64,000 nt of DNA, from the NCBI GenBank assembly GCA_001919865.1, contig MNIR01000051.1:91920-155919 (forward strand), read 5' to 3'. Source of the stretch: Gemmatimonadetes bacterium 13_1_20CM_4_69_16 (lineage in GTDB: Bacteria; Gemmatimonadota; Gemmatimonadetes; Gemmatimonadales; GWC2-71-9). Of the stretch, positions 1 through 44,393 are shown one piece after another. The first letter of the stretch is position 1; every line of letters begins with the position of its first letter. A model generated the notes under the pieces. The model had not been told where the DNA came from and made no database searches. It saw only the letters and a list, made by a program, of their open reading frames with translations. The position numbers and the translations under genes were made by a program.

Positions 1-290
1 AGTACTTCCGCCGCGTGCAGACCGCGAACCAACGCTTTCAAGAGAGCGGCGACCCGGGTTGGCTGACGGACCGGGGCGAGGTGTTCATCACGCTGGGCGA
101 ACCCGATGACGTGTTCGACTTCTCGAGCGACGTGTCCCGCAGCGGCGTGCGGGGCGTGCGCTGGACCTATTCGAGCTTGCGGCTCACGCTCTTCTTTCAG
201 GATCAGACCGGGTTCGGCCGCTTCCGCCTGACGCCGATGTCGCGCGCCGAATACCAGCGCGTCCTCGCGCGCGTCCGCCGCGGGCAGTGA
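1..290 (+). CDS. GWxTD domain-containing protein, C-terminal fragment (5' end outside window)
   Basis: The frame of ORF 15..290 stays open to the window edge. It contains the literal GWxTD signature 'GWLTDRGEVFITLGEPD'. Its stop overlaps the next gene's GTG (GTGA at 287-290). Confidence 0.7.
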   Translation, partial: YFRRVQTANQRFQESGDPGWLTDRGEVFITLGEPDDVFDFSSDVSRSGVRGVRWTYSSLRLTLFFQDQTGFGRFRLTPMSRAEYQRVLARVRRGQ

Positions 291-2518
291 AGCGCATCGC
301 GGCCCTCCTCGCCTTCGGGGCCGCGGCGCCGCTCGCCGTCGCAGCCCAGCACGACGATCACCAGACCGCGGCGCAGCGGGCCGAGTCGCTGCGACTCGCC
401 GGGCGTCCGTGGCACGCGGCCGAAACGCTGCTCGCCGCCGCGGCGCGCGAGTTGCACCTCGAGCCGGCCTTCGTGCTCGCGGGGGCCAAGGCCGAGCTGC
501 GCGCCCGCCGCTACGATCGGGCCCGGGGGCTGCTCGCCGGGCAGCCGTGGCTGGGCGAGTATGCCGATGGCGCGGGGCTCGCGGTGTTGGCGGAAGCCGA
601 AGCGCGGCTGGGGCGCGCCTCGGAAGCGGCGGGGCATTACGCCGCCGCGCGGGCGCATGCGCCGGGGGCGCGGGGGGCCCTGCTGGCGGTGCGTGCCGCG
701 CTCGCCTGGGAGGCGGGGGGAGAGAAGGACAGCGCGGCCGCGGCGTACGGAGCGGCGCGCACTGCCGGGCTCGCGGTCATCGACTCTTGGCTGCGGGTGC
801 GGCAGGCCCGCGTGACGCGCGACACCGCCGTCGCGTTCCGGTTGCTCGCGGACCTGCCACCCCCGGCCGCGCGCGAGGTGCCGGCCGCGCGCGCGCAGGC
901 CCTGCTCGTGGCGGGGGATAGCGCGGCGGCGCTCGAGGCGTTCGCGCAAGCCGGGCGGGCCCTGGAGGTGGCGCGCCTGGCTCTCGCGCGCGGCGATTCG
1001 GGCCGGGCGCGCGACGCGCTGTACGGTCTGATGGCGCGCGCGCCCGAGACCGATGACGCCGCGGCGGCCGTGGGGGTGGCGCTCGCGTCCCTGCCGCCGC
1101 GCACTCCCCCCGAGCGCGTGGCGCTCGCTCGCGCGATGAAGCCTCACGGCGCCGCGCCCGATGCCCGCATGGAAGTGGAGCGGGCGGTACGCCAGGGCGA
1201 TTCCAGCGCGGCCACGCTGGTGCTGCTCGGCGAGCTGCTCGCCGGGGCGGGGCGCTCGCGCGATGCCGAGCGGGCGTATCGGGCGGTGGCGAAGGACGCC
1301 GCGCTCGGCCCGTTGGCGATCTACCGCCGCGCGCGCATCCTCGTGCGGCTCGGCGATCCCGGCGCCCGCGAAGCCCTCTCCGGGTTTGCCCAGTCGTATC
1401 CCGCCGACACCGCGGCACCGACCGCGCTCTACGTCCTCGGCGACATGCTCGCCGACCGGGGCGACTGGGTGGGCGCCGCGCAGTGGTTCGCCGAGCTGGT
1501 CGCGCGCTACCCCGCCGATCTGCGAGCGTCACTGGCGCGCTTCCGGCTCGCGGCCCAGGCGACCCAAGAGGGACTGCTGGACAGCGCGGCGGCGCTGTAC
1601 CAGGCGGAGGTCGCCGCCGCGGCGCCGCAGCGTACGGCCGCGCGGTTCTGGCTCGGCAAGCTCGCCCTCTCGCGTGGCGACACCGCCGACGCGGAGGCGG
1701 CCTGGGTCGCGCTCGCCCACGAGGACTCGATCGGGTATTACGGCCTGCGCGCGCGTCGCGAAGTGGCATTGCCGCCGCTCCGGCTCGCCGCGCCTCCGCC
1801 GCCTCCACCGCCCCCGGCAGTCGCGGCGTGGCTCGGCCGGCTCGACACGCTGGAGCTCGCCGGCCTCGACAGCGCGGCGGAGACGGAGGTGCGCATGATG
1901 CTCGGTCGCTCGCCGCAGCAGGACGTCGACGCCTTGCTCGCCTGGAGCGAGGGGCTCGCCGTCCGCGGCTTCGGCCCCGCGGCGGTACGCCTCGGCTGGC
2001 AGGCGGCCCTCAAGGCGCCGGCCGATCCGCGGGTACTGCGCGCGATCTTCCCGTGGCCCAACCGGCAGGCCGTGGAAGCGGAGGCCGCCGAGTTCGGCGT
2101 CGACCCGCTGCTGTTCGTCGCCATCGTGCGTCAGGAAAGCGTGTTCGACGCCGAGGCCCTCTCCCCCGCCGGCGCGCGCGGGCTCGCGCAGCTCACCCCC
2201 GGGACGGCGGCCCTCACCGCGCGCGGGCTCGACGTCACCTTCTACCCTGACTGGATCACGGTGCCCGACTTGAACCTCCACCTCGGCGCGGCCCATCTGG
2301 ACGAGCTGCTGCGACGCTTCGGCGGCCGGGTCGATGCGGCCGTCGCGGCCTACAACGCCGGCGTCGCCCCCGTGAGGCGCTGGCTCGCCCGCGCGGGCAC
2401 CGCGGATCCCGACGAATTCGTCGAGCTCATCCCGTATCAGGAAACCCGCGGCTACGTGCGCGCCGTGCTGCGCAACCGGGAGGTGTACCGCGCCTTGTAT
2501 GCCGCGACAAGCAATTGA
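287..2518 (+). CDS. Soluble lytic murein transglycosylase (Slt-like): Ala/Leu-rich superhelical N-terminal region plus C-terminal SLT domain
   Basis: 743-aa ORF. N-terminal signal-like 'MKRIAALLAFGAAAPLAVAAQ'. C-terminal SLT catalytic motifs 'VAIVRQESVFDAEALSPAGARGLAQLTPGTA' and 'AAYNAG'. Confidence 0.85.
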   Translation: MKRIAALLAFGAAAPLAVAAQHDDHQTAAQRAESLRLAGRPWHAAETLLAAAARELHLEPAFVLAGAKAELRARRYDRARGLLAGQPWLGEYADGAGLAVLAEAEARLGRASEAAGHYAAARAHAPGARGALLAVRAALAWEAGGEKDSAAAAYGAARTAGLAVIDSWLRVRQARVTRDTAVAFRLLADLPPPAAREVPAARAQALLVAGDSAAALEAFAQAGRALEVARLALARGDSGRARDALYGLMARAPETDDAAAAVGVALASLPPRTPPERVALARAMKPHGAAPDARMEVERAVRQGDSSAATLVLLGELLAGAGRSRDAERAYRAVAKDAALGPLAIYRRARILVRLGDPGAREALSGFAQSYPADTAAPTALYVLGDMLADRGDWVGAAQWFAELVARYPADLRASLARFRLAAQATQEGLLDSAAALYQAEVAAAAPQRTAARFWLGKLALSRGDTADAEAAWVALAHEDSIGYYGLRARREVALPPLRLAAPPPPPPPPAVAAWLGRLDTLELAGLDSAAETEVRMMLGRSPQQDVDALLAWSEGLAVRGFGPAAVRLGWQAALKAPADPRVLRAIFPWPNRQAVEAEAAEFGVDPLLFVAIVRQESVFDAEALSPAGARGLAQLTPGTAALTARGLDVTFYPDWITVPDLNLHLGAAHLDELLRRFGGRVDAAVAAYNAGVAPVRRWLARAGTADPDEFVELIPYQETRGYVRAVLRNREVYRALYAATSN

Positions 2519-35073: not shown

Positions 35074-35907
35074 ATGATGTCCCGTGTGATAGCTGTCGCC
35101 AACCAGAAGGGCGGTGTCGGGAAGACCACCACCGCCGTGAACCTCGCTGCGTCCCTCGCGACCGCCGAGCGCAAGACGCTGCTGGTGGACGCCGACCCCC
35201 AGGCGAACTCGACCAGCGGTGTCGGGATCGAGCGCGACCGCATCCGACACTCACTGTACGACGCGTTGCTCGACGGCCGGCCCCTCGCGGATACTCGCTT
35301 CGCCCACGTGCACTTCCCCTATCTCGACGTGGTACCGGCGACACAGGACTTGGTCGGCGCGGAGCTGGAGCTCGTCAACAAGCAAGCGCGCGAGACGATG
35401 ATGCGGCGCGCGCTGCGCGACATCCGTGATCAATACCAGTACGTCATCATCGACTGTCCTCCGTCGTTGGGCCTGCTCACCCTTAACATGCTCACGGCGT
35501 CGGACAGCGTGCTAATCCCGATTCAGTGCGAGTACTATGCGCTCGAAGGGCTCTCGCAACTGCTCAACACCGTCAAGCTGGTGCAACGGAACTTCAACGC
35601 CGCACTCGCGATCGACGGCGTGCTGTTGACCATGTTCGACGCGCGCTTGAATCTCTGCAAGCAGGTGGCCGAGGAGGCGAAGGAGTACTTCGGCTCGCAG
35701 ATGTTCGGCATCACCATTCCCCGGAACGTGCGGCTCGCAGAAGCCCCGAGCTTCGGTAAGCCGATTCTGTTATACGATGTCCAGTCGGTGGGTGCGAAGA
35801 GCTACTTGGCCGTGGCGCAGGAGCTGATCGGCCGTGTCGAGCGCGCCGTCGCGCCCGTCTCCCCTGCCCCGCCCACCGCTGAACCGCTGCCGGAGGTGCC
35901 CGCATGA
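35074..35907 (+). CDS. parA: Chromosome partitioning ATPase ParA (Soj)
   Basis: 'VIAVANQKGGVGKTTTAVNLAASLA' is the deviant Walker A. 277 aa. Confidence 0.95.
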   Translation: MMSRVIAVANQKGGVGKTTTAVNLAASLATAERKTLLVDADPQANSTSGVGIERDRIRHSLYDALLDGRPLADTRFAHVHFPYLDVVPATQDLVGAELELVNKQARETMMRRALRDIRDQYQYVIIDCPPSLGLLTLNMLTASDSVLIPIQCEYYALEGLSQLLNTVKLVQRNFNAALAIDGVLLTMFDARLNLCKQVAEEAKEYFGSQMFGITIPRNVRLAEAPSFGKPILLYDVQSVGAKSYLAVAQELIGRVERAVAPVSPAPPTAEPLPEVPA

Positions 35908-36794
35908 CGGAAACCATTGCCGGTCGCCGTCGTCTCGGTCGGGGGCTCGAGGCCCTGCTGGGACCGACTCGCGAGCAAGCCGAGCGCGAAGGGAGCTTGG
36001 TCGAGCTGGCGATCGCCGACATTCGCCCCAACCCCTACCAGCCGCGCCGGGACGTCGACCCGACGGCGCTGGACGAGCTCAAGGCCTCGATTCTGAAAGC
36101 GGGTCTGCTGCAGCCGGTGGTGGTGCGAGCGGCCCCAGGAAACGGCGGCTACGAACTGATCGCGGGCGAGCGGCGGCTGCGCGCCTGCCAGGCGCTCGGG
36201 TGGGAGCGGATCCCCGCGGTGAAGCGCGACGTGGACGACCGCACGGTGCTCACGCTCGCGCTGATCGAGAACCTGCAACGTGACGACCTCTCGCCCGTGG
36301 ACGAAGCACGCGGCTACGAGCGCCTGATCGCTGAGTTCAGTCTGACCCAGCAGGGCGTGGCGGACGCCGTGGGACGCGACCGCTCCACGGTCGCCAACGC
36401 CCTGCGCCTCCTCAAGCTCCCGGCCCTAGTGCTCGGGCTGCTCCACGAAGGACGGCTCTCGGTCGGGCACGCTCGCGCACTGCTCGCGCTGGACGACGCG
36501 CGCGCCGTGACGGCACTCGCGAAGGAGGCGGTCGATCTCGGGCTCTCGGTGCGCGACGTCGAGGATCGCGCCCGGGGGGGCCGGGCGCCGGTGCGCCGGC
36601 CTCGTCTCAAACAAGGGCTCGGCCAGGCGCCGGAGGTGCGTCGCATCGAGGATGCGTTGCGCCGCCGGCTGGGCACCGACGTGCGGGTGACGCTGCGCGC
36701 CAAAGGAAAGGGGCAGATTCATGTCAACTTCTATTCGAACGACGACCTGGCACGCTTGCTCGAGCTGATCCTTGGAGCGCCGTTCGACGGATGA
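35904..36794 (+). CDS. parB: Chromosome partitioning protein ParB (Spo0J)
   Basis: 'IRPNPYQPRRDVD', 'GYELIAGERRLRA' (ParB box II) and 'ENLQRDDLSPVDEA'. ATGA overlap with parA. Confidence 0.95.
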   Translation: MTETIAGRRRLGRGLEALLGPTREQAEREGSLVELAIADIRPNPYQPRRDVDPTALDELKASILKAGLLQPVVVRAAPGNGGYELIAGERRLRACQALGWERIPAVKRDVDDRTVLTLALIENLQRDDLSPVDEARGYERLIAEFSLTQQGVADAVGRDRSTVANALRLLKLPALVLGLLHEGRLSVGHARALLALDDARAVTALAKEAVDLGLSVRDVEDRARGGRAPVRRPRLKQGLGQAPEVRRIEDALRRRLGTDVRVTLRAKGKGQIHVNFYSNDDLARLLELILGAPFDG

Positions 36795-37579
36795 AGCAGA
36801 AAAGCGTCACCATCGTCGTCCATAAAGATCGGGAGCTCGAGTCCCATCAGTATCGCGTGCCGCTGTGGGCGTTCGAAATGGGGAAGTGGACGGCCGCTGC
36901 CATCGCGGTGCTGGTGGTGCTGTTCTTCTTGTTCGCCGGACCGATCACGCGGAATGCCGTACGAGCCCAGTTGCTCGACCGAGAAGTGGCGCGGTTGCAG
37001 CGGGAGAACAGCCGCGTGCAACAACTCGCCGCGGCCCTGAACCGGGCGGAGGCGAACTACCAGGAGCTGCGTCAGTTGCTCGGCGTGAAGGCCCCGCCGG
37101 AAAAAGTCGTCGTGACGGCTGACCTGATGCGCGCGCTGCCCGTCCTGGCACGGGCGCCCCGCGCGCCGACGCGGTTCGAGCCCGACTCCGCGACGCCGCT
37201 CCATTGGCCGTTAGATGTTGTCGGCTTCGTGACCCGCGGTCAGGTACGGCCGGGCGATCCCGCCGAGTCCCACCCCGGGATCGACATCGCGGTGCCGGCG
37301 GGGACGCCAGTACGCGCCGCCGGTGCCGGGCTCGTGGCCCAGGCGGCCACGGATCCCGCCTACGGGCTGTTCGTGCTCTTGCGGCACACCGGCGGATATG
37401 AGACGATGTATGGGCACGCCTCGCGCCTACTGGTGCGCGAAGGCGATTCGGTAGCGTCCGGACAAGTGGTGGCTCTCTCCGGCAGCTCCGGGCGGTCGAC
37501 GGCGCCACACCTCCATTTCGAGATCCGCCGCGAGGGCAAGTCGCTGGACCCCCTCACGGTCGTGAAACAGGAGAATTGA
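36791..37579 (+). CDS. M23 family metallopeptidase (LytM-type) with N-terminal TM and coiled coil
   Basis: 'HPGIDIAVPAGTPVRAAGAG' and 'GSSGRSTAPHLHFEI' are the HxxxD / HxH motifs. ATGA overlap with parB. Confidence 0.88.
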   Translation: MKQKSVTIVVHKDRELESHQYRVPLWAFEMGKWTAAAIAVLVVLFFLFAGPITRNAVRAQLLDREVARLQRENSRVQQLAAALNRAEANYQELRQLLGVKAPPEKVVVTADLMRALPVLARAPRAPTRFEPDSATPLHWPLDVVGFVTRGQVRPGDPAESHPGIDIAVPAGTPVRAAGAGLVAQAATDPAYGLFVLLRHTGGYETMYGHASRLLVREGDSVASGQVVALSGSSGRSTAPHLHFEIRREGKSLDPLTVVKQEN

Positions 37580-37580
37580 T

Positions 37581-37991
37581 ATGGCCATCTTCACCGAGAA
37601 GGGACAGGGTGCCCCCGAAGCCGAACCCGGCCTCTCGATCATCGGGACTGGAATGCGGGTCGTCGGCGACATCACCGCCGACGGCGTGGTGAAGATCGAG
37701 GGCACGGTCGTCGGTACGGTACGCGCCGGGCGCCAAGTCCTGGTCGGCAAGGGCGGGGAAGTGGAAGGCGACGTGATCTCCCGCGAAGCCATCATCGGCG
37801 GCGAGGTGCGGGGCAGTATCCGCGCGGAGGAGCGGGTAGAGATTCAGGCTTCGTGCGTCGTGCACGGGGACATCGCGGCGAAACGCATCCTCGTCCAAGA
37901 GGGCGGTGAGATCAACGGCGTCGTGCGGATGGGCGAGACGACACTCGAGCCCGAGAAGGTGGAGAAGGCCAGCTCGCAGCGATCCTTCTGA
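37581..37991 (+). CDS. Bactofilin (polymer-forming cytoskeletal protein)
   Basis: 136 aa. Repeated beta-helix pattern 'GDITADGVVKIEGTVVGTVRAGRQVLVGKGGEVEGDVISREAIIGGEVRGSI'. Starts 1 nt after the M23 stop. Confidence 0.88.
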   Translation: MAIFTEKGQGAPEAEPGLSIIGTGMRVVGDITADGVVKIEGTVVGTVRAGRQVLVGKGGEVEGDVISREAIIGGEVRGSIRAEERVEIQASCVVHGDIAAKRILVQEGGEINGVVRMGETTLEPEKVEKASSQRSF

Positions 37992-38003
37992 GTCGTGGCC
38001 CGA

Positions 38004-38012
38004 TTATCCACA
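38004..38012. promoter_or_regulatory. Perfect DnaA box (TTATCCACA) in an AT-rich intergenic island
   Basis: A 9/9 match to the consensus at 38004-38012. A 7/9 box lies in opposite orientation at 38030-38038 (TGTGGATTG) and a 6/9 box at 38078-38086. Confidence 0.5.
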
Positions 38013-38149
38013 CGCTCAGGTTTCCGGCATGTGGATTGTTTATCTCGTTGCTAAATAGCTCTTTATAAGATTCCCCATGTGGGAATCTCATGTCAGCGTC
38101 TCTAAGCTGGCTCGATAATGTCACTATACTGCCACCATCATTGCCCCTG

Positions 38150-38902
38150 ATGCGGCTCGTCGAGCTGGCCGGCTACCTCGATACATACCTCCGAGTTGCC
38201 GACGTACCGGACGCCCCGGCGGCGCTCAACGGACTCCAGCTGGCGAACGCGGGGGACGTCACACGCGTCGCGGCAGCGGTCGACCTGTGCGAAGCGACCG
38301 TGCGGATGGCGGCGGAGCAGGGGAGCGATCTGCTGCTCGTGCACCACGGCTTGTTTTGGGGCGGGCTCAAACCGCTCACCGGCCCCGCCTACCGCCGGGT
38401 GGCGGGACTCATGAAGCAAGACATCGCGCTCTACAGCGCGCACCTGCCGCTCGATCTGCATCCGGAGGTGGGCAACAACCCGCGCCTCGCCCAGCAGCTC
38501 GGCGTCGCCGTGCGCGGCGGATTCGGGGAGGAGTACGGGGTGCTGATCGGTGTGTGGGGGGAATGGGATGGCTCACGCGGCGCACTGCAGCAACAGCTCG
38601 CCGCCGTGCTGGGCACGCCGCCGCGAGTCATGCCGTTCGGGCCCGAGCAGGTGCGGCGGGTGGGCATCGTCACCGGGGGAGCGGGCTCGTTGATCGCCCA
38701 AGCTGAGGCGGCGGGACTCGACACCTACATCACCGGCGAAGGCGCGCACCACACCTTCTTCGACGCCGAGGAGCTGGGACTGAACGTGTTCTACGCCGGG
38801 CACTACGCGACTGAGACGCTCGGCGTCAAGGCGCTGGCGGAGCACCTGAGCGCGAAGTTCGGCCTGCCCTGGACGTTCCTCGACCATCCCACCGGCCTGT
38901 GA
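38150..38902 (+). CDS. Nif3-like dinuclear metal center protein (GTP cyclohydrolase I type 2 homolog)
   Basis: ATG at 38150 (MRLVELAGYLD...) inside track ORF 38090..38902. 'DLLLVHHGLFW', 'LYSAHLPLDLHPEVGNN', 'TGEGAHHTF'. The start at 38090 is not excluded. Confidence 0.85.
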   Translation: MRLVELAGYLDTYLRVADVPDAPAALNGLQLANAGDVTRVAAAVDLCEATVRMAAEQGSDLLLVHHGLFWGGLKPLTGPAYRRVAGLMKQDIALYSAHLPLDLHPEVGNNPRLAQQLGVAVRGGFGEEYGVLIGVWGEWDGSRGALQQQLAAVLGTPPRVMPFGPEQVRRVGIVTGGAGSLIAQAEAAGLDTYITGEGAHHTFFDAEELGLNVFYAGHYATETLGVKALAEHLSAKFGLPWTFLDHPTGL

Positions 38903-40104
38903 GCGCGCAGCGGGTGCTGGCGGTGCTCGCCCTCGCGGAGCTCCTGGCCATGGCGCCGTGGTTCAGCGCCTCCGCCGTAGCCCCGACGCTCTCCCGTCTG
39001 TGGCAGCTCGGGCCCGCTGGCGCGGCTTGGCTCACCATCTCGGTGCAGCTCGGCTTCGTCGTCGGTGCGCTCGTGTCGGCGATGCTCACGCTGAGCGACA
39101 TCTGGTCGGCGCGGCGGCTCGTCCAAGCGTCGGCGGTGGTCGCCGGGCTGGCCACGCTGGGCGTCGCGATCGCTCCGACACGCGTCGTCGGTATCGCACT
39201 CCGCCTGGTCACCGGTGCCGCCCTCGCGGGCGTGTATCCGCCAGGGATGAAGATCGTGGCAGGCTGGTTTCGCGAGGGCCGCGGCTGGGCGATCGGGATC
39301 ATGGTCGGCGCGCTAACGCTTGGCTCGGCGTTGCCTCATCTAGCGCGTTGGCTCGTGCCCGCGGCCCTGTGGCGCCCGGTGCTCGGTGCGGCGGGCCTCG
39401 CTGCGTTCGCGGGGAGTGCGTTGATGGCGGTGGTGCCGCACGACGGTCCCTTCGCGGCATTGGCGCCCAACTTCAGCTGGAACGCCGTACCGCGCATTCT
39501 CCGAGAGCGCGCCGTGACCTTGGCCAACCTCGGGTACTGCGGCCACATGTGGGAGCTGTACGCAATGTGGACGTGGATCGCGGTATTCGTCGCGGAGAGC
39601 GAGCGCGCTCGCACGCACACCGATCCCGCGGCCGGGCTGCCGGCGCTGGTGACCTTTGCAGTCGTGGGGAGTGGGGCGATCGGCTGCTGGCTCGGAGGGA
39701 AGTACGCCGATCGGTTGGGCCGCACGCTCGTCACGAGCGGCGCGATGGCGCTGTCGGGCATCTGTGCGCTCGTGGTCGGGATGCTGTTCGGGCGCCCGCT
39801 CGTCGTGCTGCTGCCGCTGCTGCTCGCGTGGGGTGTGACGGTGGTGGCCGACTCGGCTCAGTTCTCCGCCTCGGTGAGCGAGCTCGCGCCGCGGGAGCTC
39901 GTGGGCACGGCGCTCACGCTGCAGACCAGCCTGGGGTTCCTGCTCACCTGTCTGACGATCTATCTGTTGCCGTGGGTCGCGCAGCGCATCGGGTGGCGCT
40001 GGAGTATGAGCCTGCTCGCCTTGGGGCCGGCGGGCGGGGTGTGGGCAATGCTGGCGTTGCGGCGGCGCCCGGAGGCGACCGCGTTGGCGGGCGGGCGGCG
40101 CTAG
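38899..40104 (+). CDS. MFS transporter
   Basis: 401 aa, about 12 hydrophobic helices. GTGA overlap with the Nif3 gene. Confidence 0.75.
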   Translation: MSAQRVLAVLALAELLAMAPWFSASAVAPTLSRLWQLGPAGAAWLTISVQLGFVVGALVSAMLTLSDIWSARRLVQASAVVAGLATLGVAIAPTRVVGIALRLVTGAALAGVYPPGMKIVAGWFREGRGWAIGIMVGALTLGSALPHLARWLVPAALWRPVLGAAGLAAFAGSALMAVVPHDGPFAALAPNFSWNAVPRILRERAVTLANLGYCGHMWELYAMWTWIAVFVAESERARTHTDPAAGLPALVTFAVVGSGAIGCWLGGKYADRLGRTLVTSGAMALSGICALVVGMLFGRPLVVLLPLLLAWGVTVVADSAQFSASVSELAPRELVGTALTLQTSLGFLLTCLTIYLLPWVAQRIGWRWSMSLLALGPAGGVWAMLALRRRPEATALAGGRR

Positions 40105-41243
40105 GGGACTACGAAGATCCCGACGCCGCTGCCGTAGTCGTCCGGCGCCCGCGTCGTTCCGGCCGGCACAATCCACGCCGTGCCGTCGATCCGTACGTTG
40201 ATGCGGTGCACGCCGCTCACGATCGGTATGACGGCTTCCCACTCGCCGGGGCCCGTGCTGGTGAGCGCGAGTGGCTCCCAATCGGTGAAGTCGCCGGCGA
40301 GCTCGACCCGTGTGGCGTCGGCGACGTGCACCACGATGCGCACCGGCCCGCCGCGCACGGCCAGCACCTGGAGACGGGCCGCGGGCAGGGAGGTGCCGTC
40401 ATCGGCACTGGCGCCGCGAGGCGCAGCGCGGGGGGGGGGGAACGCGACGCGTCGAGGGGTTATCGCGCGAACGCGAACTGCGAGGGTGAGATAGCGACCG
40501 GCCACGCTGCCGCGGATCGGGTCGGTGGGGTAGCGACCGCCCCCGATCATGAGGGCCGTACGGGGGCCGAGGGAAATCGCAGCGCTTGCTTCGCCGTACG
40601 AGCCGCGACCGCCACCGCGGCTCCACAACCGCGCGCCCAAGGTGCCTTCGAGCACGACCGGCCCCGGCTCCGCGCGCGCCGAGGATTGGAGATCGGTGTA
40701 CGTCGTGTCGCCGATGTGAGAATGGTTGACGGATAGCTGCACGGTGAACTGGGCCAGTCGCAGCCACGCGCCGGCGCCGCCGGCTGCCACGGTTCGCGGG
40801 CCGGTCCCGTAGGACGTCGTCCCCGCGGTGCCGCTGATCCAGGCGCCGCGGCCCCCCTCCAGCAGGTGCAGCCGCGCCGCCGCGACGGCGTGCCAGAAGC
40901 TCGCGAAGTCGACGTAGCGGCTGGCGCCCACACCGGCGGCGAGCTCCCCGCGCCAGCGCGTCGCCGCACGGGGTGCGAAGAGCGAGCCCGTCACATCCCC
41001 TTGCAGGCTGCGATGGCCGCTCTCGAACCGAAGGTAGGTGCCGCGAGCGCTGATCCCGACGCCGGGGCGCTCCCATCGTAGGGCGGGCGTGGCCGTGACG
41101 GCCCCGGAGGGAAGAAAGCCGTCATAGCGTACGGTTGAAATGCCGACGTCGAGGGTGCCCGCCGTCTGAGCGGGGGCGCTCGCGACGAGGAGAGACCATC
41201 CCGCCGCGAGTGACGCGGCCCGAGCGTGCGTCCCGGCCGTCAC
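40101..41243 (-). CDS. Secreted protein: beta-strand-rich (outer-membrane-barrel-like) N-terminal region plus C-terminal CBM48 / AMPK-beta glycogen-binding-like domain
   Basis: 380 aa. Signal 'AAGWSLLVASAPAQT'. Alternating Gly/aromatic strands. C-terminal 'VELAGDFTDWEPLAL...GEWEAVIPIVSGVHRINVRIDGTAWIVPAG'. Confidence 0.65.
   Translation of the reverse strand: MTAGTHARAASLAAGWSLLVASAPAQTAGTLDVGISTVRYDGFLPSGAVTATPALRWERPGVGISARGTYLRFESGHRSLQGDVTGSLFAPRAATRWRGELAAGVGASRYVDFASFWHAVAAARLHLLEGGRGAWISGTAGTTSYGTGPRTVAAGGAGAWLRLAQFTVQLSVNHSHIGDTTYTDLQSSARAEPGPVVLEGTLGARLWSRGGGRGSYGEASAAISLGPRTALMIGGGRYPTDPIRGSVAGRYLTLAVRVRAITPRRVAFPPPRAAPRGASADDGTSLPAARLQVLAVRGGPVRIVVHVADATRVELAGDFTDWEPLALTSTGPGEWEAVIPIVSGVHRINVRIDGTAWIVPAGTTRAPDDYGSGVGIFVVP
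40430..40440 (-). repeat. Homopolymeric tract, G11 on + (C11 in the coding strand)
   Basis: 11 consecutive G at 40430-40440. In the minus-strand gene they read TTC CCC CCC CCC CGC (F-P-P-P-R), in the linker before the CBM48 domain. Confidence 0.9.
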
Positions 41244-41255
41244 CGCGGTGCGGTG

Positions 41256-41891
41256 TTAGGGCCGGCTGGGACGGGACTGACGGGCGCCGGCGTCGAGCTG
41301 CAGGCCCTGGGCGCCGTACGCGGCGGACGCGGCGGTCGACACGGCCATCCCGGGCGGCGCGCCGAGCGCGATGTCGCGCTCGACGGCGCGGCGGAACTCG
41401 ACCAAGTCCGCGTCCCGCGTCGTGCTCGCGAGGGCGAGGACGGCGGCGGCGGCGCTGTCCACCGGCACGCCGCTCGCTACAAGATCGGCGAGGACGGCGA
41501 GCGGAACGGTGATGGTCTGGGAACGAGCTCGGCGCAGTTTCGCCAGCACCGCGGGGCCGGCACCCGCCCGGAGGGCCGCGGCCCCAGCCGCGAGCTCGGG
41601 GGGCGTGGTGCCCGGTCCGAGGGCGCTGCGGGCCTCCCCCAGATCGGCCACGAGGCGCTGGACCGCGCCCACGATGACCTCGCCCGGCGCCCCTTTGGTT
41701 GCTCCCTCGAGCGCTCGCTGCACGAGCGGCTCCGTGGGCAGCCCGGCGGCGCGCGCCGAGTCGATGACACTCGCTACCAACGGACGGACACTTGGGTCGA
41801 GTCGGTCGAGCCGTTGGTCTTGTGCGGCGGCCGCCGTCGCGATGAGTGTCGCGCCGAGCAGGCTCGTGGACGTGGTGCGGAGCAGGTGCAT
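41256..41891 (-). CDS. Hypothetical secreted Ala-rich (helical) protein
   Basis: 211 aa. Signal 'LLGATLIATAAAAQDQ'. Sits between the two CBM48-domain genes on the same strand with 2-12 nt gaps. Confidence 0.55.
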   Translation of the reverse strand: MHLLRTTSTSLLGATLIATAAAAQDQRLDRLDPSVRPLVASVIDSARAAGLPTEPLVQRALEGATKGAPGEVIVGAVQRLVADLGEARSALGPGTTPPELAAGAAALRAGAGPAVLAKLRRARSQTITVPLAVLADLVASGVPVDSAAAAVLALASTTRDADLVEFRRAVERDIALGAPPGMAVSTAASAAYGAQGLQLDAGARQSRPSRP

Positions 41892-41893
41892 CG

Positions 41894-42328
41894 TTACGAA
41901 CCGCCCACTGTGACGACGGAGCTCGGCGTTCCGAACTCGTCATCGCGCGCGGCGGGTGCCGCGGGATCCGCCAGCCAACGGGAGCCGTCCACGAGGAAAG
42001 CGTAGCGATAGCGCCCCGGGGACAGTGGCACGACCGCGGTCCACACGGGGCCACCGCGTTGGGAAGGTCGCATCGGGGTGCGTGCGGCGTCCCAGTCGTT
42101 GAAGTCGCCGACCAGCGCCACCCGCGCGGCGCGTGGAGCGACGACGACGAACTGAAACGCGCGCGTCGCGGTCTCGGCGGGCGGCGCTTCGTGCGGCCCG
42201 CTCACACGTGGCGTCGGGCCGCCCGCGATCTCCTCCATCACGCGGCTGTCGACCGCCGGATCAATCTGCACCGGCCGGCGTAGGTGAGCGACGATGCGCT
42301 CGATCACGTTTTCGGAATGCTCAAACAC
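41894..42328 (-). CDS. CBM48 / glycogen-binding-like (E-set) domain protein, in the gene position usually held by an anti-sigma factor
   Basis: 144 aa. 'VALVGDFNDWDAARTPM...GPVWTAVVPLSPGRYRYAFLVDGSRWLADP'. Overlaps the sigma gene stop by 8 nt. No TM segment. Confidence 0.65.
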   Translation of the reverse strand: MFEHSENVIERIVAHLRRPVQIDPAVDSRVMEEIAGGPTPRVSGPHEAPPAETATRAFQFVVVAPRAARVALVGDFNDWDAARTPMRPSQRGGPVWTAVVPLSPGRYRYAFLVDGSRWLADPAAPAARDDEFGTPSSVVTVGGS

Positions 42329-42890
42329 GCTCCGCCTCCCGGAAAATGAGCTGCAGCTGCTCGCGGGCGCGCTTGACTCGCATCTTCAACGCCGAGATGC
42401 CCGCCCCCGTCAGCCGCGCCATTTCGTCGTACTCGAGGTCCTCGATGTGCTTGAGGAGGAACGCCTCGCGGTATTCCGGCGCGAGTCGGGCGAGCGCCCG
42501 GCGGACGGTGTCGTCCCACTCCGCGCGCTCGGCCGGGCTGGGGAGCGGAGCGCGGGTGAGGGCCGCGTCGTCCCGCACGAACAGCCGCCCGCGCCGCGCC
42601 GCACGCGCGCCGGCGGTCCGGCACCGGTTGACCAGGATACCGTACAGCCACGCGCCGAACCGCTCCGGATCGTCGCAGCGGGCGAGCGAGCGATACCCGC
42701 GAACGAAGGCGTCCTGCAATGCCTCCTCCGCGTCTTCGCGATCTCCGAGCATGTGCACGGCGTAGCGGCCCAGACGGTCGCGGTAGCGTGCGACGAGCGC
42801 AGTGTACGCACCGGTGTCGCCGGCGCGGACCCGGCGCACCAGCTCTCCGTCGCTCGCCCCCACGTGGTGTATACCCAGCGACTGAGCCAT
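42321..42890 (-). CDS. ECF-type RNA polymerase sigma-70 family factor
   Basis: Last 189 codons of track ORF 42321..44600, from the ATG at 42890. Region 2 'ALVARYRDRLGRYAVHMLGDREDAEEALQDAFVRGY', region 4 'EYREAFLLKHIEDLEYDEMARLTGAGISALKMRVKRAR'. Confidence 0.88.
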   Translation of the reverse strand: MAQSLGIHHVGASDGELVRRVRAGDTGAYTALVARYRDRLGRYAVHMLGDREDAEEALQDAFVRGYRSLARCDDPERFGAWLYGILVNRCRTAGARAARRGRLFVRDDAALTRAPLPSPAERAEWDDTVRRALARLAPEYREAFLLKHIEDLEYDEMARLTGAGISALKMRVKRAREQLQLIFREAERV

Positions 42891-42977
42891 GACGTCACAG
42901 TACCCCGATCCTGTGACGCCGGCCAGCGGAGCCGGGGTATTTGGGGCAGAGCCGCCCACGATCGCCCGAGGAGCCAG

Positions 42978-44393
42978 ATGTCGAAACGCCTGATCCCACC
43001 CGCCTTGGCGGCGGCCCTGCTGGCCGGCGGGGCCTGCTACCAGGACGATACAGTTCCATCTGCGCCGCAGAGCGTAAAGTCGCTCACCAGAGTGCTGCTT
43101 ACCGACGCGCCCTTCCCGTACGACTCGGTGGCGAGCGTGACCCTGCACGTGGTGCGGATCGAGGCGAACACGCTGGCCGACACGACTGGGAGCGGCGCTT
43201 GGGCCCTCATCGCCGAGCCGAGGAAGAGCTTCGATGTGCTGGCGCTGCAACAGGGCGCGACCGCGCTGGTGGGGCAGGGGGCGCTGTCGGCGGGCGCGTA
43301 CCACGCCATCCGGATGACGATCGACACGAGCCGGTCCTCGGTCGTCTGGAAGAACGGGAGCCAGGCTCGCGTGAACTGGCAGAACTGGTCGGGCTCGGAC
43401 GAGGAGCCCCTGTACGCCCTGGTCGAGTATCCGGTCAATGTTTCCACCCAGGGCGCGGAGATCATCATCGATTTCGACGTCGGTCGCAGTTTCCTGTACA
43501 ACTTTTACGGCGCCAAAGAGTTCATCCTGATGCCGCAGATCCGCGCGATCAACTCCGCGGCCACGGGGACGATCGCGGGCAGTGTGACGAGCGACTACAC
43601 GGGCGCGACGCGTCCCATCGCGAACGCCAACGTCACGCTGTGCGGCGGCGCTGCGTGCGAGCCACCGAACGCGTACATCGTGGCGACGAGCCGGAGTGAT
43701 TCGGCGGGGCGCTACGCGGTCGCGTTCGTGCGCGCCGGCTCCTACACCGTCCGGGTCGAGCAGCCCGACTATCCATTCCTCAATCCCGTGATCGTGGCCA
43801 ATGTGACCGTCAGCGCGGGCGACACGACGCGGCTCGCGGTGTCGCTCCCCAAAGCGGGATCGGGCGGCGGCGCGTACGTGCGTATCTCTGGACCTACGTC
43901 GGTCGGCGTCGGCGGCACGATCAGCCTCAAGGCTGCCGTGGGCGATGCGGGCGGCAACCCGGTCGTAAATCCCGCGGTGTCGTGGGCGAGCAGCAACAGC
44001 GCCATCGCGCAGGTGACGGGGGTGGGCGACACGGCGTCCGTGATAGGTCGCGCGGCCGGTTACGCCACGATCACCGCGGCGAGCGGCCAGCTGTCCGATA
44101 CACTCGGGGTCCAGGTATTGGGCTCGGCGGCGCCGGTGGCGTCCGTCACCGTCGTGCCCGCGAGCGCCAGCCTCGCGGTCGGGGACAGCGTCGGCTTCCG
44201 CGCGGAGCTTCGCGACGCGGCGGGCGCCTTGCTCACTGATCGCGCGGTGTCGTGGTTCTCCAGCGACAGCACAGTGATCAGCGTTTATCCCTACGGCCCG
44301 CAGGCGCTCGTGCGGCCGCGGGCCGCCGGAGGCGCCTTGCTGCGCGCCACGAGCGAGGGCAAGACGGGCCAGGCGACGATCACGGTGCACTGA
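42978..44393 (+). CDS. Lipoprotein with DUF4382-like, carboxypeptidase-regulatory-like and two Big_2 (bacterial Ig-like) domains
   Basis: ATG at 42978, with GAGGAG 5-10 nt upstream, inside track ORF 42294..44393. Lipobox 'LLAGGAC'. 'YHAIRMTID' (DUF4382-like), 'GSVTS...ANVTL' (CarboxypepD_reg-like), and twice 'V..SSNSAIAQV / SSDSTVISV' (Big_2). Confidence 0.7.
   Translation: MSKRLIPPALAAALLAGGACYQDDTVPSAPQSVKSLTRVLLTDAPFPYDSVASVTLHVVRIEANTLADTTGSGAWALIAEPRKSFDVLALQQGATALVGQGALSAGAYHAIRMTIDTSRSSVVWKNGSQARVNWQNWSGSDEEPLYALVEYPVNVSTQGAEIIIDFDVGRSFLYNFYGAKEFILMPQIRAINSAATGTIAGSVTSDYTGATRPIANANVTLCGGAACEPPNAYIVATSRSDSAGRYAVAFVRAGSYTVRVEQPDYPFLNPVIVANVTVSAGDTTRLAVSLPKAGSGGGAYVRISGPTSVGVGGTISLKAAVGDAGGNPVVNPAVSWASSNSAIAQVTGVGDTASVIGRAAGYATITAASGQLSDTLGVQVLGSAAPVASVTVVPASASLAVGDSVGFRAELRDAAGALLTDRAVSWFSSDSTVISVYPYGPQALVRPRAAGGALLRATSEGKTGQATITVH

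Follow-up and report, generated by a model that had tools for sequence, protein, structure and literature searches.

In FecA/FecR/FecI and in the extracytoplasmic function (ECF) sigma/anti-sigma/SusC-like glycan systems of Bacteroides, an outer-membrane barrel with an extra periplasmic domain, an inner-membrane anti-sigma factor and an ECF sigma factor are encoded together. Another arrangement is CnrH/CnrY of Cupriavidus metallidurans, in which CnrY has a short cytoplasmic N-terminus (<50 aa), a single transmembrane (TM) helix and a tiny periplasmic part, and works with CnrX; RsrA, ChrR and RslA represent the class I zinc-associated (ZAS) anti-sigma factors. In SigI/RsgI of Clostridium thermocellum, an autoregulated system, the single-pass anti-sigma factor has an extracytoplasmic carbohydrate-binding module, and release involves RseP-type intramembrane cleavage (PMC10328401, PMC12203970, PMC6582324). 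The locus described here was found in a stretch of 64,000 nt (the window) from Gemmatimonadetes bacterium 13_1_20CM_4_69_16 (assembly GCA_001919865.1, contig MNIR01000051.1, positions 91,920-155,919 of the forward strand); it comprises the genes of an ECF sigma factor, of a protein with a CBM48 domain, of a helical protein and of a barrel protein, and it is probably an autoregulated ECF sigma/membrane anti-sigma signalling cassette conserved across Gemmatimonadota.

Four tightly packed open reading frames (ORFs) were located on the minus strand at 40101-42890 (ORF listing and translation). The sigma gene and the gene of the 144-aa CBM48 protein overlap by 8 nt; gaps of 2 nt and 12 nt follow before the genes of the 211-aa helical protein and the 380-aa barrel protein, respectively; a lipoprotein gene starts divergently at 42978, at a distance of 87 nt from the sigma ATG. 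The same packing (8-nt overlap, 2-12-nt gaps) and the same divergent DUF4382/Big_2 lipoprotein gene across an 87-nt intergenic region had been described in an earlier note on this DNA, made from the letters alone, and were reproduced by the ORF listing and by Pfam. The features are as follows (window positions).

42321-42890, minus strand: ECF (group 4) sigma gene (Pfam, TIGR02937); annotated ATG at 42890, probable start GTG at 42863.
41894-42328, minus strand: putative anti-sigma gene, 144-aa deletion allele (family form ~184 aa: N-terminal motif, TM helix, CBM48).
42221-42328, minus strand: conserved N-terminal cytoplasmic motif, aa 1-36, a candidate sigma-binding segment (conservation in 46 loci and 326 clusters).
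42197-42200, minus strand: junction of a 120-nt in-frame deletion (DNA alignment with the allele L001, blastn break at 42198, the sequence itself).
41906-42163, minus strand: CBM48/AMPK-beta-type beta-sandwich, aa 56-141 (Pfam above gathering cut-offs, PDB profile matches).
41256-41891, minus strand: secreted all-helical repeat protein, 211 aa (AlphaFold2 model).
40101-41243, minus strand: outer-membrane barrel protein with a C-terminal CBM48-like domain, 380 aa (AlphaFold2, Foldseek).
42871-42898, minus strand: putative autoregulatory ECF promoter, GTGAC (-35) N17 GGGTAT (-10) (motif conservation; position weight matrix (PWM), 28.2 bits).
42913-42940, plus strand: second copy of the ECF promoter motif, facing the DUF4382 lipoprotein gene (PWM, 22.1 bits).
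42978-44393, plus strand: DUF4382/CarboxypepD_reg/Big_2 lipoprotein gene, putative regulon output (Pfam).

The likeness of the cassette protein to CnrY is one of architecture only: a cytoplasmic N-terminus of <50 aa, two helices by pattern, a single TM helix (family form) and an adjacent ECF sigma gene are common to both, but a CBM48 ectodomain with outer-membrane and periplasmic partners is found here, whereas CnrY has its tiny periplasmic part and CnrX. RsgI is similar in its single-pass anti-sigma layout, in the carbohydrate-binding-type module on the extracytoplasmic side and in autoregulation, which is very probable for the present locus; it differs in that SigI-type sigma factors are not ECF sigma factors, its hosts are monoderm, it has no outer-membrane partner, and the N-terminal domain of RsgI is absent here (Pfam: no RsgI_N match in the CBM48 protein; the sigma factor matches ECF models, not the SigI type). 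No CBM48 version of RsgI was found in the literature searched. The logic of a trans-envelope signal relay could be the same as in FecA/FecR/FecI and the SusC-like systems; the barrel modelled here is 14-stranded and OmpG-like, in contrast to the 22-stranded TonB-dependent transducer of FecA-type systems, the cassette is without a FecR domain, and the extra domain of the barrel is C-terminal and CBM48-like, unlike FecA/FecR (Pfam: no FecR, Plug or TonB_dep_Rec match in any cassette protein). Gene position and topology are shared with the class I ZAS proteins, and one relative outside the phylum bears a zf-HC2 domain, but the proteins of Gemmatimonadota have ~35 conserved cytoplasmic residues with no HxxxCxxC and no Pfam match. 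A description of an anti-sigma factor with a CBM48, AMPK1_CBM or glycogen-binding domain was not found in the literature searched, in line with the remark of the earlier note that the module was of a kind not recognised as characterised.

The assignment of the 144-aa protein to the CBM48/AMPK-beta type, proposed before from the letters, was borne out by Pfam: CBM_48 (PF02922), 49.5 bits (cut-off 22.4); AMPK1_CBM (PF16561), 39 bits (cut-off 26.8); PDB profile matches of the domain: CBM48 of GlgB and the CBM of AMPK beta. Its homologues (1472) are nearly all 179-189 aa in length, and ~40 extra residues were located by alignment after the N-terminal 44 aa and ahead of the CBM48 domain; this segment is a conserved juxtamembrane sequence with a TM helix, AAWRWLTRPRxxxLSPLGGLAIAAGLxALxL. 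A TM-like hydrophobic window was observed in 116 of the 120 best homologues, the exceptions being the window protein itself, the protein P0002 of a sister metagenome-assembled genome (MAG) and two fragments. The layout common to the family is an N-terminal motif of ~35 aa, a variable linker, the juxtamembrane segment with one TM helix, and CBM48. With a profile of the N-terminus and the TM helix, 326 clusters (50% identity) with the conserved ~35-aa motif were found; ten matches were inspected in detail, and seven of these carry CBM48, three are shortened copies of the same layout, and in none of the ten was the motif seen on another ectodomain. P0372, also a strong match to the profile, was discarded as a spurious translation of a tandem repeat. 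In the source annotations the family proteins appear as "isoamylase early set" or "glycogen-binding domain-containing protein".

As predicted from these sequences, the topology of the family is that of an ordinary anti-sigma factor: short cytoplasmic N-terminus, TM helix, extracytoplasmic sensor domain. The CBM48 domain would normally be periplasmic and not cytoplasmic, because the family is one of single-pass membrane proteins. The anti-sigma factor that was not recognised in the earlier note is probably the CBM48 protein itself.

The neighbourhood sample consisted of 80 loci, one genome per species (phmmer with five window proteins against six-frame ORFs). In 49/49 loci the gene immediately before the CBM48 gene encodes an ECF sigma factor, and in 33 of these the two genes share the 8-nt overlap RTGnnTGA; the helical-protein gene comes after the CBM48 gene in all loci with enough sequence (47/47), and the barrel gene is downstream in 38 of 43 loci and upstream of the sigma gene in two more (L038 and L041). 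These loci span Gemmatimonadales, Gemmatimonadaceae, Longimicrobiaceae and one Candidatus Eisenbacteria MAG. The only contig from an isolate, that of Roseisolibacter sp. H3M3-2 (L035), starts within the CBM48 gene and so does not reach the sigma gene. Adjacency of the sigma and CBM48 genes in related genomes had been named beforehand as a test by which the proposal could be refuted; the adjacency is conserved, and together with the overlap it favours the view of the earlier note that the protein in this slot is likely the cognate regulator.

Two more distant relatives were recognised. In L052, outside the phylum, the sigma gene is followed by the gene of a zf-HC2 (25.2 bits, cut-off 22.2)-TM-CBM48 protein, and the next gene encodes a secreted protein with the motif GLPxxxL..EG..K, as in the 211-aa protein. 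L059 (Balneolales MAG SKXL01000074, 2899-9185) holds a full set of analogous genes in the order: sigma factor; protein with a longer N-terminus of the YLDGEL type, TM helix and CBM48; beta-rich protein ending in CBM48; helical protein (hhalign, E 8.8e-5); DUF4382 lipoprotein; second helical protein. No anti-sigma match was given by Pfam for the N-terminus of L059, which was read as an anti-sigma domain by eye only. Because the full analogous set is present in L059, the module may be older than the split of Gemmatimonadota and the Bacteroidota-related lineages.

The CBM48 protein is the only protein of the cassette with a cytoplasmic segment. Its N-terminal motif, M-x-E..ERhh..LRRPV..DP.LD.RVM..I, is kept across 46 loci, and the linker between the motif and the TM helix ranges from ~5 to ~70 aa while the motif stays conserved. 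Anti-sigma domains of <50 aa are treated as possible class II (CnrY-like) domains, one helix of which binds region 4 of the sigma factor and the other region 2, and class I domains average 101 aa (PMC7406223). Since domains of <50 aa are so treated, the motif is inferred to be a minimal, class-II-like (CnrY-like) anti-sigma domain of two helices, both of which were read from the sequence pattern. The class II architecture was found in full (segment of <50 aa, one TM helix, adjacent ECF sigma gene); agreement with class I (ASDI/ZAS) was not found (~35 conserved residues, no Pfam match, hhalign E 0.074 with the ZAS domain of L052).

The sigma factor gave matches to Sigma70_r2 (54 bits) and Sigma70_r4_2 (49.8 bits) of Pfam, region 3 being absent, and to the ECF superfamily model TIGR02937 (75.2 bits, cut-off 42.9); regions 2 and 4 only, a length of about 170-200 aa and the superfamily match are the features of an ECF (group 4) sigma factor. 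With this protein the cut-off was not reached for any NCBIfam equivalog, and neither Gemmatimonadetes nor CBM48 is mentioned in the main text of the ECF reclassification paper (PMC7826278).

The regions upstream of the sigma gene across related loci have in common the sequence TGTGAC-N17-GGGTAT(A), which ends ~7 nt before a conserved GTG and is kept in many of these loci. In the 64-kb window this motif has exactly 2 matches (0.01 expected): 42898-42871 on the minus strand, toward the sigma gene, and 42913-42940 on the plus strand, toward the lipoprotein gene; the same two sites were the sole window matches of a PWM made from the other loci (28.2 and 22.1 bits). Paired divergent copies were observed in 13 species-level loci (L003, L004, L006-L009, L012, L013, L016, L017, L021, L039, L053), and the DUF4382 lipoprotein gene was seen in divergent orientation to the sigma gene in 14 loci and, in 4 others, on the same strand and downstream; the window lipoprotein carries DUF4382, CarboxypepD_reg and Big_2 (Pfam). 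Because the same motif precedes the sigma operon and the lipoprotein gene, the sigma factor is very probably autoregulated with the lipoprotein gene as an output, and the earlier suggestion that the lipoprotein belongs to the sigma module gains support from the same observation. The annotated sigma ATG (42890) is located inside the conserved promoter, after its -35 and before its -10 element; the start is therefore likely GTG 42863, which would probably give a protein of 180 aa and an mRNA with little or no leader.

In L024-L026 and L037 the promoter motif also precedes the gene of a second helical protein (L024, 8118-9861, also L025 and L026; L037, 4173-4956; motif GTGAC-N17-GGGTCT), and in L024-L026 the DUF4382 gene comes after it; this arrangement suggests that the regulon is wired differently in Gemmatimonadaceae. 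An inverted repeat, GTCACAG-N11-CTGTGAC, was noticed in the intergenic region of the window (42894-42917); it arises because the two -35 elements stand back to back, and it could be the binding site of a dimeric regulator.

For the 211-aa protein no Pfam family match was obtained. Its AlphaFold2 model (pLDDT 84) is a repeat of 9-10 helices with an N-terminus of low confidence (residues 1-23), which reads by eye as a signal peptide (hydrophobic stretch ending AAAAQ); Foldseek against the PDB gave designed helical repeats only and no natural relative, so that there is no functional lead for this protein. Neither the 211-aa nor the 380-aa protein led to anything useful in sequence searches of the PDB.

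The 380-aa protein gave sub-threshold CBM48-type matches at residues 301-374 (Pfam; E 5e-4 and 1.5e-3); many of its homologues bear a precomputed Pfam call of CBM48 type, and its C-terminal domain is 33% identical to the CBM48 domain of the 144-aa protein (E 1e-10). Its AlphaFold2 model (pLDDT 78) comprises a helix at 5-20, which is taken as a probable signal peptide, 14 strands at aa 26-261, a disordered linker and a C-terminal beta-sandwich at aa 290-380; the top Foldseek match of the model was OmpG (E 7.5e-8, TM-score 0.60 on the target), so the N-terminal helix, the 14 strands and the OmpG similarity expected of an OmpG-like barrel are all present. The secreted helical protein and the second CBM48-like domain at the end of the 380-aa protein, both read before from the letters, are in agreement with these results. 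The number of strands is even, therefore the C-terminal CBM48-like domain of the barrel should be periplasmic, and it would presumably share this compartment with the CBM48 domain of the anti-sigma factor. The barrel gene and a convergent ORF of an MFS transporter (38899-40104, plus strand) overlap by 4 nt at their 3' ends (window 40101-40104), which leaves no space for a terminator between them.

A mechanism can be proposed on this basis. At rest, the N-terminal motif would hold the sigma factor at the membrane, on its cytoplasmic side. The periplasmic CBM48 domain would be the sensor, probably together with the CBM48-like domain of the barrel and the helical protein; it would either bind a glycan of the envelope or periplasm or dock onto one or both of two partners, the CBM48-like domain of the barrel and the helical protein. 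On a signal the anti-sigma factor would be lost, plausibly by regulated intramembrane proteolysis as in RsgI and RseA-type systems (PMC12203970); the TM helix contains SPLGG, with helix-breaking residues. The freed sigma factor would then transcribe its own operon and the lipoprotein gene. A more far-reaching form of this proposal, possible but held only tentatively, is that the cassette is a new trans-envelope device, in which an OmpG-like barrel would signal to the inner-membrane anti-sigma factor via two paralogous periplasmic CBM48-type domains, which would touch each other directly or through a bridge, either a glycan or the helical-repeat protein, and an unclassified domain of ~35 aa would hold the sigma factor.

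Glycan binding by AMPK beta1 involves the residues W100, K126, W133, L146 and N150. In the family alignment W79 and W118 are invariant; in a hand alignment with the AMPK beta1 sequence, these presumably correspond to the two platform Trp residues, which we take to be kept in both the anti-sigma and the barrel CBM48-type domains.

Several results weigh against the CBM48 protein as a glycan-sensing anti-sigma factor that is released by proteolysis. In the same hand alignment Lys126 is presumably replaced by an invariant Ala and Asn150 by Ser. The positive-inside rule is ambiguous for the TM helix, with Arg on both flanks, and the proteolytic release of the sigma factor is pure inference. Searches with the N-terminal motif gave nothing in Pfam at E<=10 (N-terminus with TM helix, full-length P0003, P0037) and no match in NCBIfam; the PDB profile search with the N-terminal alignment gave chance matches only, no anti-sigma chain being among them; and hhalign of the N-terminus and TM profile with the N-termini of L052 (E 0.074) and L059 (E 0.001) gave alignments confined to the last helix or to the juxtamembrane segment, the cytoplasmic part being not significant. 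Such a motif, without detectable similarity to any anti-sigma domain and much shorter than the class I domains (mean 101 aa; PMC7406223), would also be expected if the CBM48 membrane protein were not an anti-sigma factor at all: the sigma factor would then be controlled transcriptionally or by an unlinked regulator, and the CBM48 protein, the helical protein and the barrel would be merely co-transcribed products of an envelope/glycan-handling regulon. This is considered unlikely: a cytoplasmic segment is present in the CBM48 protein alone of the cassette, this segment is as conserved as the folded domain whereas the adjoining linker varies freely, the start of the gene overlaps the sigma stop in 33 of the 49 loci with adjacency in all 49, and the protein in this slot of L052 has a bona fide zf-HC2 anti-sigma domain on the same TM-CBM48 body.

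The copy of the anti-sigma gene in the window is unusual. The 144-aa protein as encoded has no TM-like window; its gene is ~99.5% identical in DNA to the 184-aa allele L001 (JGI contig) except for a clean 120-nt in-frame gap, by which 40 aa, GASAAWHWLTRPRHIALSPLGGLAIAAGLGALVLILPGRR (juxtamembrane motif and TM helix), are taken out. The junction is at ~ window 42199|42198, with the sequence GTGAGCGGGCCGCACG and a microhomology of at most ~3 nt. By exact look-up, the full-length protein P0361, identical to the window protein outside the deletion, was found on 85 contigs and the near-identical full-length protein P0363 on 48 contigs; the 144-aa and 162-aa forms were each found once. In the sister MAG L002 (13_2_20CM_69_8) a different in-frame gap of 66 nt lies in the same segment; a stretch of 11.7 kb is 99.6-99.9% identical between the window and L002, with two indels only, both in frame. 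The TM-less state is real in the window sequence and is peculiar to this assembly, not the design of the family. The earlier reading of a TM-less protein is thus correct for the window copy and does not extend to the family, in which the protein is a single-pass membrane protein; the idea of a soluble carbohydrate-binding fold in the anti-sigma position, drawn from a 120-nt deletion allele on one contig, is not supported.

As predicted from its sequence, the product of the deletion allele would stay in the cytoplasm with no access to the periplasm; the allele would be a rare variant of the strain, in which the regulon is locked in one state, or else the result of a local error of assembly. That it is an assembly artefact, the organism itself encoding the 184-aa membrane protein, is a serious possibility: both shortened alleles come from MAGs of one naming scheme (13_1_20CM..., 13_2_20CM...) and each was found once, and the breakpoint microhomology is at most about 3 nt; on the other side, the indels of 120, 66 and 60 nt are all in frame, which random misassembly would give about 1 time in 27. 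This explanation concerns the window allele only and is compatible with the membrane anti-sigma cassette as the best explanation of the locus.

The same in-frame lengths, all multiples of three, are also what would be expected of alleles under selection, and with the intact, in-frame ORF and the different 66-nt in-frame deletion in the same segment of the near-identical second MAG they could be taken to mean that the TM-less form is native, i.e., a soluble cytoplasmic anti-sigma factor that detects an intracellular glucan, for example glycogen, by its CBM48 domain. This is regarded as very improbable, because the 144-aa and 162-aa forms are singletons against a full-length protein, identical outside the deletion, on 85 contigs and a near-identical one on 48, the TM helix is kept in 116 of 120 homologues, the TM positions are covered by the profile matches and the helix is present in those members that were read in sequence, and the partner proteins are secreted. 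A cytoplasmic glycogen sensor was rejected on the evidence of the TM helix, the singletons and the secreted partners, and sensing was placed in the periplasm because these partners are secreted.

Two further in-frame length differences were noticed. An indel of 60 nt relative to L002, the second of the two indels of the 11.7-kb comparison, lies at window 37304-37363, inside the ORF 36791-37579 (plus strand), the L002 counterpart of which is a shorter gene call for which no Pfam family is recorded. In P0366, from a near-identical strain (JGI contig), the anti-sigma gene has a third in-frame deletion, by which 8 aa (ERIVAHLR) are lost from the first helix of the N-terminal motif. As a side possibility, by analogy with mucA alleles, the in-frame deletions in these near-identical soil strains (two in the TM segment, of 120 and 66 nt, and one of 8 aa in helix 1) may be natural regulatory mutants. 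Caution is also indicated in a more general way: an odd architecture in a single MAG needs comparison with near-identical alleles before it is read biologically.

Beside the cassette, at window ~35800-38900, lie ParA, ParB, bactofilin and NIF3-family genes (from the gene calls of L002); because these genes adjoin it, the cassette may sit near the chromosome partition/origin region. The GC content is 0.766 at window 1-2000 and 0.65-0.74 across the remaining window.

With the comparison of alleles the headline oddity of the locus, a soluble carbohydrate-binding protein beside an ECF sigma factor, dissolves, and what would remain is a coherent sigma/anti-sigma cassette that occurs phylum-wide, is unannotated and has a defined promoter. 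If this is true, the annotation of hundreds of proteins now listed as "isoamylase early set" or "glycogen-binding domain-containing" would change to probable ECF anti-sigma factor, and a candidate minimal anti-sigma domain would be added to the short list of known classes. For a phylum with few cultured members, the cassette would provide a concrete regulon unit: sigma factor, anti-sigma factor, two partners, a promoter motif and one output gene.

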